Source of the DNA: a virus
Taxonomy: Duplodnaviria; Heunggongvirae; Uroviricota; Caudoviricetes
Direction: 5' to 3' (one strand)
DNA: 2,378 nucleotides
Virus record (IMG/VR): IMGVR_UViG_2548876939_000010
Shown here one piece after another: positions 1 to 2,378 of this stretch. The notes beneath the pieces were generated by a model. It saw only the letters and a program-made list of their open reading frames with translations, ran no database searches and was not told the DNA's origin. How positions within the stretch are numbered: position 1 is the stretch's first letter; every line of letters starts with the position of its first letter. The translations under genes were made by a program, and so were the position numbers.

Positions 1-231
1 TCAGGAGTGATTTTCATTGTTCAACCGCCCCGCCCGCTTCGTCTTACGATATTCATCATAAACTTTGGGATCATACTGAAGCTCCCCGCCAGATGCCTCC
101 TGTAGACGCATCGCGCGACCTTCGGGAACTAAATCCCCTTTCCAGCTATAAAGCGAAGCCAAACGAATACCTGCTGCTTGTGCAAGTTTTGTTTTTGAAC
201 CGAAATACAAAAGAGCGTCAGTTTTAAGCAT
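1..231 (-). CDS. dicC: DicC, small Cro-like regulator (76 aa) of the prophage division-control switch
   Basis: Complete minus-strand ORF: ATG is the complement of 229-231, stop TGA is the complement of 1-3. The translation MLKTDALLYFGSKTKLAQAAGIRLASLYSWKGDL... matches E. coli DicC as I recall it. A Shine-Dalgarno AAGGTG (complement of 238-243) lies 6 nt upstream of the ATG. It is divergent from dicA, as in lambdoid immunity regions. Confidence 0.9.
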   Translation of the reverse strand: MLKTDALLYFGSKTKLAQAAGIRLASLYSWKGDLVPEGRAMRLQEASGGELQYDPKVYDEYRKTKRAGRLNNENHS

Positions 232-245
232 TTAAAACACCTTTA

Positions 246-265
246 TTGTTAGCCATGACTAACAA
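246..265. promoter_or_regulatory. Operator-like inverted repeat TTGTTAG-CCATGA-CTAACAA in the dicC-dicA intergenic region (candidate DicA/DicC operator)
   Basis: Seen directly: 7-bp perfect arms (246-252 and 259-265) around a 6-bp centre. It shares the core TGTTAGCCATG with the sites at 757-772 and 795-808 and overlaps the -10/start region of the putative dicC promoter. Confidence 0.5.
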
Positions 266-292
266 AATAGATGTTAACAAAAACATAGTCAA
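264..292 (-). promoter_or_regulatory. Putative sigma70-type promoter for dicC
   Basis: Read on the minus strand: TTGACT (complement of 287-292), a 17-nt spacer, then TATTTT (complement of 264-269). The predicted transcript start sits inside the operator-like palindrome and is followed by the dicC Shine-Dalgarno and ATG. Motif match only; not experimentally anchored. Confidence 0.4.
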
Positions 293-314
293 TACGATTT
301 AGCATTAGCTAACT

Positions 315-722
315 ATGGAAACAAAAAATTTAACTATCGGCGAACGCATTAGGTATCGTCGGAAAAACCTCAAACACACCCAAAGGTCTCTTGCTAAAGC
401 CCTGAAAATCTCCCATGTGTCTGTATCACAATGGGAACGGGATGATAGTGAACCTACAGGGAAGAACCTTTTTGCCCTCAGCAAAGTATTGCAATGCTCA
501 CCAACATGGATTCTATTTGGCGATGAAGACAAGCAACCAACACCACCTGTTGAGAAGCCAGTTGCCTTATCCCCCAAAGAACTAGAGCTCCTTGAGCTGT
601 TTAATGCACTGCCAGAATCAGAACAGGATACCCAGCTCGCCGAAATGCGAGCTCGAGTAAAAAACTTCAATAAACTCTTTGAAGAATTACTAAAAGCCCG
701 TCAGCGGACAAATAAAAGATAA
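315..722 (+). CDS. dicA: DicA, HTH (XRE/cI-like) repressor of the dicB operon, 135 aa
   Basis: ORF 315-722 translates to METKNLTIGERIRYRRKNLKHTQRSLAKALKISHVSVSQWERDD..., with a classic N-terminal helix-turn-helix signature (QRSLAKALKISHVSVSQWE). It matches E. coli DicA as I recall it in length and sequence. No alternative in-frame start preserves the HTH. Confidence 0.92.
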   Translation: METKNLTIGERIRYRRKNLKHTQRSLAKALKISHVSVSQWERDDSEPTGKNLFALSKVLQCSPTWILFGDEDKQPTPPVEKPVALSPKELELLELFNALPESEQDTQLAEMRARVKNFNKLFEELLKARQRTNKR

Positions 723-756
723 CATCATCAATGAGTTATCTTTTACCACATCAATC

Positions 757-772
757 ATGTTAGCCATAACAT
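757..772. promoter_or_regulatory. Operator-like inverted repeat ATGTTA-GCCA-TAACAT downstream of dicA
   Basis: Seen directly: 6-bp perfect arms (757-762 and 767-772) around a 4-bp centre. It contains TGTTAGCCAT, the same core as the sites at 246-265 and 795-808. Confidence 0.4.
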
Positions 773-782
773 ACAAAATCAC

Positions 783-811
783 TTGACCTATATGTTAGCC
801 ATGGCTAATCT
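783..811 (+). promoter_or_regulatory. Putative dicB-operon promoter with operator in the spacer
   Basis: TTGACC at 783-788 (5/6 match to the -35 consensus), a 17-nt spacer, then TAATCT at 806-811 (a weak -10, 3/6). The perfect palindrome at 795-808 lies in the spacer and -10, the expected layout for a repressor-controlled promoter. The -10 assignment is uncertain. Confidence 0.35.
795..808. promoter_or_regulatory. Perfect 14-bp palindrome TTAGCCATGGCTAA (candidate DicA operator at the dicB-operon promoter)
   Basis: Seen directly: the sequence at 795-808 equals its own reverse complement and is preceded by TG, giving the TGTTAGCCATG core shared with 246-265. It sits 81 nt upstream of the ydfA start. 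Confidence 0.5.
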
Positions 812-888
812 TATTTGCATCAACACACCGCACGGTGTTCTCAGCAAACAGTTCCGCTACCCCGGCGTTAAGGGGAAATGAGGTCAAC

Positions 889-1044
889 ATGGATACTATC
901 GATCTTGGCAACAGCGAATCTCTGGTATGTGGCGTGTTCCCCAACCAGGACGGTACGTTCACCGCGATGACGTATACCAAAAGCAAAACGTTTAAAACCG
1001 AATCTGGAGCGCGTCGCTGGCTGGAAAGAAATTCAGGTGGGTGA
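889..1044 (+). CDS. ydfA: YdfA-like small protein (51 aa), first gene of the dicB operon
   Basis: ATG at 889 is preceded by GAGG at 880-883 with a 5-nt spacing. It translates to MDTIDLGNSESLVCGVFPNQDGTFTAMTYTKSKTFKTESGARRWLERNSGG with stop TGA at 1042-1044. The ORF track's GTG start at 835 has no ribosome-binding site and would add 18 unsupported residues. Length and sequence fit YdfA of the Qin prophage as I recall it. Confidence 0.8.
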   Translation: MDTIDLGNSESLVCGVFPNQDGTFTAMTYTKSKTFKTESGARRWLERNSGG

Positions 1045-1045
1045 T

Positions 1046-1174
1046 ATGGATTTCGACACAATCATGGAAAAGGCTTACGAAGAATACTTCGAAGGTCTTG
1101 CCGAAGGCGAAGAAGCTCTCAGCTTCAGCGAATTTAAACAGGCACTTTCCAGTTCGGCAAAATCTAACGGCTGA
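1046..1174 (+). CDS. ydfB: YdfB-like small protein (42 aa)
   Basis: Not in the ORF track (below its length cutoff). I translated it by hand: ATG at 1046-1048 preceded by AGGTGG at 1035-1040 with a 5-nt spacing, giving MDFDTIMEKAYEEYFEGLAEGEEALSFSEFKQALSSSAKSNG and stop TGA at 1172-1174. The start is 1 nt after the ydfA stop, suggesting translational coupling. It matches the 42-aa YdfB of K-12 as I recall it. Confidence 0.75.
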   Translation: MDFDTIMEKAYEEYFEGLAEGEEALSFSEFKQALSSSAKSNG

Positions 1175-1203
1175 TAAGCGAAACAGCACCGCGAGGAATC
1201 AGT

Positions 1204-1422
1204 ATGCAGAAACGAGAACCCGTCATCATCGCGCCAGACTATACCGATGATGAACTTTATGAGTGGATGCGCCAGAAAATTAATGCAGCGCAGGATCTGA
1301 AATGGGCCAATGAAGCCAGGGCTAAGCAGGCTGAAAATCTGTCCGCTCTGGAGCAGGATATCACTAATCTGGAAAAAGCAGCGACATTAAGCATTGCCAG
1401 AATGATTACATACCCGCGTTAA
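1204..1422 (+). CDS. ydfC: YdfC-like protein (72 aa), function unknown
   Basis: ATG at 1204 is preceded by GAGGA at 1193-1197 with a 6-nt spacing. It translates to MQKREPVIIAPDYTDDELYEWMRQKINAAQDLKWANEARAKQAENLSALEQDITNLEKAATLSIARMITYPR with stop TAA at 1420-1422. Length and position fit ydfC of the dicB operon. Confidence 0.85.
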   Translation: MQKREPVIIAPDYTDDELYEWMRQKINAAQDLKWANEARAKQAENLSALEQDITNLEKAATLSIARMITYPR

Positions 1423-1701
1423 TAGCTAACCAACGAAGCTAAGGTTGGTAATTAAGGAGTTCTCCACGGATGAGGTGGAGTGCGTGCGCCGGACACGGGT
1501 GAGCATCCGGCACTGACAGTTTACTGAAAGGATATTTCCCTGAAAAGTCAGACCATAACGCGAAAGCGCACGGCGAGGTAGCTGGTTCATAGATAGCCTG
1601 TCGTTAAATTTTCGTCGACCGTGCGCTTCCGGTTGTGGCAATCCGCGAAATGGCGCGGCGGTAAGTATGGCGGGGTTATTCCTTCCCCCGTTGAGGACAC
1701 C

Positions 1702-1738
1702 GGGTTGTCAGGTTGACCATACGCTTAAGTGACAACCC
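1702..1738 (+). other. Strong RNA stem-loop (9-bp perfect inverted repeat GGGTTGTCA / TGACAACCC, 19-nt loop) about 25 nt upstream of the DicF 5' end
   Basis: Seen directly: 1702-1710 is the exact reverse complement of 1730-1738. It lies in the untranslated ydfC-dicF spacer, which is expected to be part of the DicF precursor. Confidence 0.5.
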
Positions 1739-1763
1739 CGCTGCAACGCCCTCTGTTATCAAT

Positions 1764-1816
1764 ATTCTGGTGACATTTGGCGGTATCAGTTTTACTCCGT
1801 GACTGCTCTGCCGCCC
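1764..1816 (+). ncRNA. dicF: DicF small regulatory RNA (about 53 nt; antisense inhibitor of ftsZ translation)
   Basis: The sequence ATTCTGGTGACATTTGGCGGTATCAGTTTTACTCCGTGACTGCTCTGCCGCCC followed by a TTTTTT run is near-identical to DicF RNA as I recall it, with at most a couple of substitutions. It lies between ydfC and dicB, as in the K-12 operon. The ends are defined by processing and termination, so the boundaries are approximate to a few nt. Confidence 0.85.
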
Positions 1817-1822
1817 TTTTTT
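1779..1822 (+). terminator. Intrinsic (Rho-independent) terminator forming the DicF 3' end
   Basis: GGCGG at 1779-1783 pairs with CCGCC at 1811-1815, with inner pairing CAGT at 1787-1790 against ACTG at 1802-1805. A T6 run follows at 1817-1822. It must be leaky, because dicB and ydfD lie downstream in the same operon. Confidence 0.6.
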
Positions 1823-1827
1823 AAAAG

Positions 1828-1984
1828 TGAATTTTGTGATGCGGTGAATGCGGCTCAGCGCACGCGGAACAGTTAAATCGGTAAAGCGGTCATTTGCTGA
1901 GTAACGAGAATGCTCTGTATCCGGCGTTAATTGTTAACTGGTTAACGTCACCTGGAGGCACCAGGCACCGCATCACAAAATTCA
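1828..1984 (+). repeat. Long-range 19-bp perfect inverted repeat (arms 1828-1846 and 1966-1984) bracketing the dicF-dicB spacer; candidate RNase III-type duplex
   Basis: Seen directly: TGAATTTTGTGATGCGGTG (1828-1846) is the exact reverse complement of CACCGCATCACAAAATTCA (1966-1984). In RNA it extends to 21 bp with a G-U and an A-U pair (1826-1827 with 1985-1986). The upstream arm starts 6 nt after the DicF T-run; the downstream arm ends 5 nt before the dicB Shine-Dalgarno. Confidence 0.6.
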
Positions 1985-2001
1985 TTGTTGAGGACGCGAT
2001 A

Positions 2002-2190
2002 ATGGAAAAGTTATCATGTAATGCCAGCACGTCTGAACTTCGTTTCGAAATTGGCGTTATCACTGGAGACAAAACATTTATTGAAGACGCCATTAAGCAG
2101 AGAAAACTCGAGCAGGACCTGTTAAATGAAGTATGCATTCCTTCAATGCTGGCTCGTCTGGACCTGCTGCAAAAAGGATATAAACAATGA
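2002..2190 (+). CDS. dicB: DicB-family cell-division inhibitor (62 aa; MinC-dependent inhibitor of FtsZ ring formation)
   Basis: ATG at 2002 is preceded by GAGGA at 1990-1994 with a 7-nt spacing. It translates to MEKLSCNASTSELRFEIGVITGDKTFIEDAIKQRKLEQDLLNEVCIPSMLARLDLLQKGYKQ with stop TGA at 2188-2190. It has the same 62-aa length and operon position as K-12 DicB and shares recognisable blocks (FEIGV, EDAI, RK, LLN, SMLARL, KG..Q), but appears substantially divergent. The ORF track's upstream TTG extension from 1894 has no ribosome-binding site and is rejected. Confidence 0.8.
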   Translation: MEKLSCNASTSELRFEIGVITGDKTFIEDAIKQRKLEQDLLNEVCIPSMLARLDLLQKGYKQ

Positions 2191-2378
2191 ATACAACATT
2201 TGCACTCGTTCTGACAGTTTATCTTGTTTCCGGCGAATCTCTTGAGCTGGTGACTGGCTTATACGGTTCAATGAAAGAATGCATGGCTGCAGCAGCAGAA
2301 CAAAAAATTCCCGGTAACTGTTATCCGGTAGATAAAACTACTCACACTAATAATAACGAAATACCGGCAGGACTTTAA
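2187..2378 (+). CDS. ydfD: YdfD-like small protein (63 aa) with a hydrophobic N-terminal segment; K-12 YdfD is reported to be lytic when overexpressed
   Basis: ATG at 2187-2189 overlaps the dicB stop at 2188-2190 (ATGA), with AAGGA at 2174-2178 upstream. It translates to MNTTFALVLTVYLVSGESLELVTGLYGSMKECMAAAAEQKIPGNCYPVDKTTHTNNNEIPAGL with stop TAA at 2376-2378. The N-terminus TFALVLTVYLVSG is consistent with a membrane-associated segment. It sits at the position of ydfD in the K-12 dicB operon. Confidence 0.8.
   Translation: MNTTFALVLTVYLVSGESLELVTGLYGSMKECMAAAAEQKIPGNCYPVDKTTHTNNNEIPAGL

Follow-up and report, generated by a model that had tools for sequence, protein, structure and literature searches.

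Does the DNA in IMG/VR virus record IMGVR_UViG_2548876939_000010 (Caudoviricetes) hold the division-inhibition module known from the Qin (Kim) prophage of Escherichia coli K-12, and is it a copy of that module? The stretch analyzed, called the window throughout, is 2,378 nt long and runs from the dicC stop codon at its left end to the ydfD stop codon at its right end. A first-pass annotation, made from the letters alone, had called it a complete Qin-like dicC-dicA switch plus dicB operon, recognized rather than novel, and its gene content, gene order and family membership were all found to be as that reading expects. Seven open reading frames (ORFs) were listed with the sizes and strands given earlier. 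The order dicC-dicA-ydfA-ydfB-ydfC-DicF-dicB-ydfD is that of K-12 Qin, with ydfA-ydfB-ydfC-dicF-dicB-ydfD downstream of dicA and on the same strand. When the window was compared with K-12 Qin from dicC through ydfD (NC_000913.3 1647620-1649985), as the first-pass annotation had proposed, the two were collinear from end to end with 92.8% DNA identity (E = 0), and neither a different gene order nor a lack of similarity was seen. Family membership was judged by the curated cut-offs of Pfam and NCBIfam, and that of DicF by the Rfam gathering score. DicC, DicA, DUF1391 (YdfA), DicB and DUF1482 (YdfD) all passed the cut-offs of their family models. A full-length collinear match at E = 0, together with family models above their cut-offs, excludes a chance match. 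We are highly confident in reading the window as a prophage immunity switch of the lambdoid, P22 immC-like kind, followed by the start of the leftward early operon, i.e., the dicAC-dicBF module of K-12 Qin. This module is already known.

The sequences had also been said to reproduce those of the K-12 module. This was the case in the left three quarters of the window, to which the K-12 annotation transfers safely, but not at the right end, where DicB and YdfD are only 55% and 63.5% identical to their K-12 counterparts. Near-identity to K-12 Qin did not extend across the whole module, with DNA identity at 72.5% for dicB and 75.5% for ydfD. The window is not a K-12 Qin copy, since the alleles of its dicB-ydfD arm belong to another class, which is common. 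Judged by the positions of its mismatches, the window is a mosaic, the dicB-ydfD arm of which derives from a prophage lineage other than that of K-12 and equally common. The left arm, from 1 to 1763, is of the Qin/ECO2947 type, and the prophage of strain ECO2947 is about 100% identical to it over these positions. The right arm is of the O103 type from 1686 on. Mismatch mapping showed 1686-2378 to be 100% identical to the allele of O103:H2 strain 12009, and 1800-2378 was 100% identical to the dicB/DUF1482 allele of this and many other strains, while the same arm is only 72-76% identical in DNA to K-12 in dicB-ydfD. The mismatch positions to each parent place the crossover interval at 1686-1763 (at 1614-1763 when judged against one IMG/VR contig, L025). 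This interval is identical in both parental types and lies just 5' of DicF.

Several observations weigh against reading the window as the K-12 module. DicB is identical to its K-12 counterpart at 34 of 62 positions and differs at 28, and only 6 of its first 14 residues match. The MinC and ManYZ activity of this DicB allele is assumed from K-12 DicB and could differ. The predicted duplex (RNAduplex) between DicF and the K-12 ftsZ leader had an energy of -36.6 kcal/mol, compared to -38.5 for K-12 DicF and -31.0 +/- 4.4 for shuffled DicF, and so it is not discriminating. The case for DicF-ftsZ pairing is made instead by the 3' 41 nt, which are identical to those of K-12 DicF. Finally, the exact combination of left and right arms was found in none of the collections searched.

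The last of these points was pursued at the junction itself. Matches to the window were found by megablast in 4,744 of 5,426 complete E. coli genomes, with a median of 2 places in each genome and a maximum of 10, but none of the 5,426 held the window's junction, and the best match over 1560-1960 was 95.8%. Exact junction patterns gave 0 matches in genome and metagenome contig collections, and a 190-nt diagnostic pattern gave 0 in viral contigs. A look-up of contigs by their exact DicB, DicA or YdfC protein gave 30 places, and the window's combination occurred at none of them. One explanation is that the window is an assembly chimera, in which a short-read assembler joined two paralogous prophages, with dicAC-ydfABC taken from a Qin-type prophage and dicF-dicB-ydfD from the other, across the stretch that they share around dicF, so that no real genome is so arranged. 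The absence of the junction from complete genomes and from the genome, metagenome and viral collections is consistent with such a misjoin, and so is the position of the junction within a segment identical in both parental types (1686-1763). The number of copies of the region per genome would also provide the opportunity, and strains such as PE164 and E105 hold both parental types at separate chromosomal places. However, lambdoid prophages are well known as mosaics, the dicB allele of the window already occurs in linkage with four or more different immunity regions, and a real recombinant at a conserved segment is equally expected. It is also possible that the source strain is missing from the collections or masked in them. 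Taken together, we consider a chimera unlikely, at roughly one chance in five, and gene identities are unaffected either way. A shorter, 106-nt junction pattern was also tried and matched contig L025; this contig is O103-type upstream and shares only the central 106 nt with the window, so the pattern is not fully diagnostic. The conserved segment around dicF would be a recombination joint between prophage lineages as well as a likely spot for short-read assemblies to misjoin paralogous prophages.

Next to the origin of the right arm stands the question of what its two proteins do. The dicB gene (2002-2190, plus strand) is a divergent allele encoding 62 aa. Residues 1-62 of the protein aligned with positions 1-62 of the Pfam model (PF05358) at 131.8 bits (cut-off 27), and NCBIfam NF049927 was matched at 123.7 bits (cut-off 100). 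The protein is 100% identical to WP_000413705.1 of the O103:H2 12009 prophage. The ydfD gene (2187-2378, plus strand), which overlaps the dicB stop by 4 nt, is likewise a divergent allele. It encodes a DUF1482 protein of 63 aa that matched the Pfam model at 69.2 bits (cut-off 25), is identical to K-12 YdfD at 40 of 63 residues and is identical to the O103:H2 12009 protein. Both divergent proteins are still clear members of their families. K-12 DicB acts via MinC to block Z rings and disables ManYZ, by which it excludes lambda and phage 434 (PMC6832061). K-12 YdfD is a lysis protein and a reported inhibitor of IspG (PMC8835842). The activity of the window's DicB allele is the weakest step in our reading, as it would follow from a K-12 protein that is 55% identical, and lysis or IspG activity of the window's YdfD would likewise be extrapolated from a K-12 protein that is 63.5% identical.

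These identities could mean that DicB and YdfD, as divergent alleles, no longer function as they do in K-12 (DicB might, for example, lack MinC or ManYZ action or have another target), and that the module is a variant and not an equivalent of the K-12 one. The divergence of DicB is focused in the N-terminal 14 residues and in residues 20-25, and the N-terminal segment has been reported to be critical for toxicity and MinC binding (PMC4967827). In K-12 DicB, however, the substitutions K2A, K2G and K2R at residue 2 keep toxicity, though deletion of this residue is not tolerated (PMC4967827). The match to the DicB family models is free of gaps and full length, and 32 of 62 DicB columns are invariant across the compared alleles, including FEIGV, EDAI, RK, LLN and SMLARL. 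Genomic position, length, the 4-nt ydfD overlap and the upstream RNA structure are all unchanged as well. A change of function is, on balance, improbable. At least two allele classes of DicB and YdfD exist, with identities of about 55-64% between them, and published functional tests were found only for the K-12 class, so MinC, ManYZ and IspG activity of the window's allele is an extrapolation.

The left arm holds the immunity switch. The dicC gene (1-231, minus strand) encodes a Cro-like regulator of 76 aa that is 100% identical to K-12 DicC in both protein and DNA, matched the NCBIfam DicC model at 159.5 bits (cut-off 130) and also matched Pfam P22_Cro. The dicA gene (315-722, plus strand) encodes a helix-turn-helix (HTH) repressor of 135 aa. 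It is identical to K-12 DicA at 134 of 135 residues (99.3%; DNA also 99.3%), the sole change being G43D, in the HTH domain. DicA matched its NCBIfam model at 235.6 bits (cut-off 101), and the only Pfam match was HTH_3. Neither an AG nor a CG dipeptide was seen in its 135 aa, and the family models gave no peptidase domain. DicA has been described as a repressor without an Ala-Gly site that is not cleavable by RecA (PMC10448788), and the presence of an HTH domain only, together with the lack of an Ala-Gly or Cys-Gly dipeptide, agrees with this description. This DicA variant is common, being listed in 6,616 blocks.

The putative DicA operator Oc lies in the dicC-dicA intergenic region at 246-265 (TTGTTAGCCATGACTAACAA). 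It is a 20-nt inverted repeat that was found both as a member of repeat family D2 and as inverted repeat I3. In K-12, Oc is TTGTTAGTCATAACTAACAA, and binding of DicA to it in vivo has been demonstrated (PMC3441716). The window's Oc is identical to that of K-12 at 18 of 20 positions, with two central changes, T8>C and A12>G, and it retains A16, the A whose change to C abolished DicA binding (PMC3441716). Two further operator-like copies, 757-776 (ATGTTAGCCATAACATACAA) and 792-811 (ATGTTAGCCATGGCTAATCT), were found upstream of ydfA in the dicBp region (757-811, plus strand), where they flank or overlap a TTGACC -35 hexamer at 783-788. They belong to repeat family D2 as well and correspond to inverted repeats I5 and I14, which brings the operator copies in the window to three in all. 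The Oc variant and both dicBp copies are probably DicA operators. In K-12, dicBp is repressed by DicA, and DicA and DicC play the parts of CI and Cro in a bistable switch (PMC10448788). Derepression can be brought about by the antirepressor Rem, which lies outside the window, or by heat or urea (PMC10448788).

A promoter-like site faces dicC and abuts Oc at 264-292 on the minus strand (TTGACT, 17-nt spacer, TATTTT). It was seen in a consensus scan only. A putative dicC promoter has been described in the dicC-dicA intergenic region (PMC3441716), and we infer that this site may be it. The promoter and terminator scan found no more sites than in shuffled sequence and missed both dicBp and the DicF terminator, the loop of which is longer than the scan permits. 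The scan, thus, contributes the dicC-facing site only, and the hexamers assigned to dicBp are our own reading, unscored in the scan, and should be taken as candidates.

Downstream of the switch, three small genes on the plus strand separate dicBp from dicF. The ydfA gene (889-1044) encodes a DUF1391 protein of 51 aa (Pfam, 96.9 bits) that is identical to its K-12 counterpart at 47 of 51 residues (92%; DNA 91%). The ydfB gene (1046-1174; 42 aa) encodes a protein 100% identical to that of K-12 (DNA 97%), and the product of ydfC (1204-1422; 72 aa) is identical to that of K-12 at 71 of 72 residues (98.6%; DNA 98%).

The DicF small RNA (sRNA) was placed at 1764-1816 on the plus strand, 53 nt by homology to K-12. 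The full Rfam model (RF00039, 1-52) matched at 1765-1816 with 77 bits (gathering score 48; E=1e-16). An intrinsic terminator at 1778-1822 consists of a hairpin followed by a T6 tract at 1817-1822. DicF is identical to the K-12 RNA at 51 of 53 nt, the differences being U>A at nt 1 (1764) and G>A at nt 12 (1775). Both fall in the 5' single-stranded arm, a region reported to pair with xylR, and A12 is the Rfam consensus at its position. DicF base-pairs with ftsZ via its 3' part, which pairs to the ribosome-binding region and represses translation (PMC5069750).

Two inverted repeats frame this RNA and could account for its processing. The first is a stem in the ydfC-dicF spacer (1561-1631, plus strand) with arms at 1561-1573 and 1619-1631. 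It was found as inverted repeat I16 (13 nt, 92% complementary) and is present in the predicted fold. A 190-nt DicF species is RNase III-dependent (PMC10448788), and a precursor of that length with its 3' end at 1816 would have its 5' end near 1627, within this stem. The second is the closing stem of the dicF-dicB spacer, with arms at 1823-1846 and 1966-1989. A 72-nt DicF, cut by RNase III from read-through transcripts, has been reported (PMC5069750), and such a species would end near 1835, within the 5' arm of the closing stem. The RNase III cuts for the 190-nt 5' end and the 72-nt 3' end would, thus, fall in the stems at 1561-1631 and 1823-1989. Taken with the operators, each of the non-coding structures that we looked at appears to have a published counterpart, either a DicA operator or one of the mapped DicF ends that depend on RNase III.

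The dicF-dicB spacer (1823-1989, plus strand) is highly structured. Its closing stem, found as inverted repeat I1 (24 nt, 92% complementary), is at least 24 bp long, and the 3' arm ends beside the dicB Shine-Dalgarno sequence. The fold of 1818-2005 had an energy of -73.1 kcal/mol (z=-6.5). Where the compared sequences differ in the stem, G-C is replaced by G-U on the plus strand and the pairing is kept, as expected of a structure at the RNA level. The spacer is 86% identical in DNA to that of K-12, with a variable hairpin 9 nt longer and 2 extra nt directly after the terminator T-tract. The hairpin, at 1878-1912, behaves as a variable cassette: the window and O103 types have a sequence here that is 9 nt longer than that of the K-12 type and unrelated to it, and the flanking stems are conserved.

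We also asked whether the spacer belongs to the STnc100 family of Rfam (RF02076), to which it aligned over model positions 21-154 of 206 with 33.6 bits (gathering score 47; E=5e-5). The STnc100/PasD prophage sRNAs share with the dicF-dicB spacer a closing stem and the CACC-NGGAGGCACCNGG-CACC hairpin of the model. However, the STnc100 copy of PMC12370729 is found in Stx2 phages, on the downstream side of stx2, and the window's spacer lies in the early left operon. Because of the below-threshold score and the different genomic context, the spacer was kept out of the family, and the similarity is a resemblance rather than membership.

A more adventurous view of the right arm, to which we give little credence, is that the window is a genuine rare recombinant that places an O103-type dicB/ydfD under Qin-type DicA/DicC, and that its divergent DicB may differ in partner or in phage-exclusion specificity. 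Separately, the spacer RNA may regulate beyond its RNase III site, for example by gating dicB translation, an idea prompted by the position of its 3' arm, which stops at the Shine-Dalgarno sequence of dicB. A put-like or N-independent antitermination RNA between ydfC and dicB was also considered but forms no part of our reading.

On the preferred reading, the known dicAC-dicBF module with an O103-type right arm, the window would work much as the K-12 module does. The scheme given here combines what the analysis observed (which genes are present and in what order, their families, the operators, the RNA structures and the mosaic origin) with activities of DicB and YdfD that are taken from K-12 work. 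It draws on PMC6832061, PMC5069750, PMC10448788, PMC4967827 and PMC8835842. DicA, a short HTH repressor without a self-cleavage domain, would bind Oc and the related dicBp operators and keep the ydfABC-dicF-dicB-ydfD transcript off, with DicC as the presumed Cro-like counter-repressor. Once repression is lifted, a polycistronic RNA would be made, in which RNase III may cut the stem at 1561-1631 and RNase E may trim the 5' end. The 3' end of DicF could come from the intrinsic terminator at 1778-1822 or from an RNase III cut in the long stem at 1823-1989. DicF would then base-pair with ftsZ and block its translation, and transcripts that read through the terminator would give DicB and YdfD. DicB would bring MinC to the septum, stopping Z-ring formation, and via MinC would disable ManYZ, with YdfD acting as a putative lysis protein. 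The earlier statements that DicA represses the operon, that DicF acts on ftsZ, that DicB acts with MinC and that it interferes with ManYZ and lambda infection agree with the literature (PMC10448788, PMC5069750, PMC6832061).

Comparison with the closest known systems placed the window among several relatives. K-12 Qin (b1569-b1576) has the same gene order, orientation, ORF lengths, operator arrangement and RNA processing stems, but differs in the divergent dicF-dicB spacer, dicB and ydfD and in the two central substitutions of Oc. The best full-length match in complete E. coli genomes was the ECO2947 prophage (NZ_CP046259.1 767840-770206), with 94.9% identity by megablast and 94.6-94.7% in separate alignments. 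This prophage retains Q, RusA, exonuclease and integrase genes. At its locus, RefSeq annotates dicC, dicA, ydfA, ydfB, ydfC, dicB and ydfD but not dicF, which is annotated in the K-12 record. The module is also present in full, with 93.1% identity, in the genome record of Escherichia phage PhiR42_1. In contrast to the window, ECO2947 and PhiR42_1 both carry K-12-type dicB and ydfD.

The right arm has its closest relatives in lambdoid prophages of the O103:H2 12009 type (WP_000413705.1, WP_001098307.1), which are found in other E. coli too, many Shiga toxin-producing strains among them. These differ from the window further upstream: they carry another HTH repressor with a YdaS-type partner, a RelB/PaaA2-type antitoxin with a ParE/RelE toxin and another gene in the place of ydfC, whereas the window has Qin-type dicAC and ydfC. 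In prophages with the window's dicB allele, a PaaA2 and ParE_toxin (Pfam) pair lies between the repressor gene and ydfA (6816-7294 in locus L003; around 1600-2300 in loci L005-L013), a pair that the window lacks. For the window's dicB/DUF1482 allele, 398 records had a best match of at least 99% identity. The assembly collection lists the dicB allele in 10,780 blocks, and four or more different types of repressor are linked to it.

More distantly, the module resembles P22 immC and the lambda immunity region with its PL operon, which likewise have repressor and Cro genes in divergent orientation with operators in common, and a host cell-division inhibitor encoded in the early leftward operon (PMC10448788, PMC6832061, PMC3961180). 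Kil is the functional analogue, and the P22_Cro match of DicC is a further likeness. The differences are that DicA lacks a RecA-dependent self-cleavage domain, that no N gene was seen and that the division inhibitors are the DicF sRNA and the MinC-dependent DicB instead of Kil.

Two words of the first-pass annotation need to be narrowed. All of dicC through ydfD is present, but transcription of the operon extends past ydfD to a gene outside the window, either ydfE or an exonuclease gene; the K-12 unit has been described as reaching ydfE too (PMC10448788), and related prophages have an exonuclease gene downstream of ydfD. Similarly, the match to Qin fits a cryptic-prophage module, but the module is also present in deposited phage genome records (PhiR42_1, Tritos, mEp460). 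Phage genome records matching the window numbered 60, one of which covers 100% of it. The 2016 DicF paper found neither DicB nor DicF in about 2,000 phage genomes. The discovery value of the window is small, as research on this module dates back to the 1980s and it is common in E. coli, often in multiple copies.

The annotation had also found no additional ORF of meaningful size, and this held up. The sole candidate was an open frame antisense to the ydfC-dicF spacer (1426-1641, minus strand; 71 aa, TTG start). That it is an extra, unannotated protein gene is very improbable, although genes of 54 aa or 71 aa have been called at the equivalent place in several assemblies and the frame is open for 93-126 codons in all 8 homologues examined. 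It has no Pfam or NCBIfam match, it begins with TTG, and K-12 carries no annotation of it. Variable sites are distributed 3:5:4 over codon positions 1:2:3, with no third-position excess, and nearly all differences alter the amino acid. The plus-strand RNA processing structures account for the region. The frame was rejected as a gene for its lack of a family match and its non-coding substitution pattern.

Some smaller observations concern the records that carry the module. In PhiR42_1 (PV340562.1), the module lies at 3001-5366, and it is also present in the phage records Tritos, mEp460_ev081 and HannyBb. The dicB gene of PhiR42_1 is unannotated, and two minus-strand 'hypothetical proteins' are placed over dicF and dicB, which are probably mis-annotations. 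The dicF region also matched 189 'plasmid' records of PLSDB (165 Escherichia, 22 Salmonella and 2 Shigella), nearly all of them non-mobilizable. Several of these records are megabase-sized and resemble mislabelled chromosomes.

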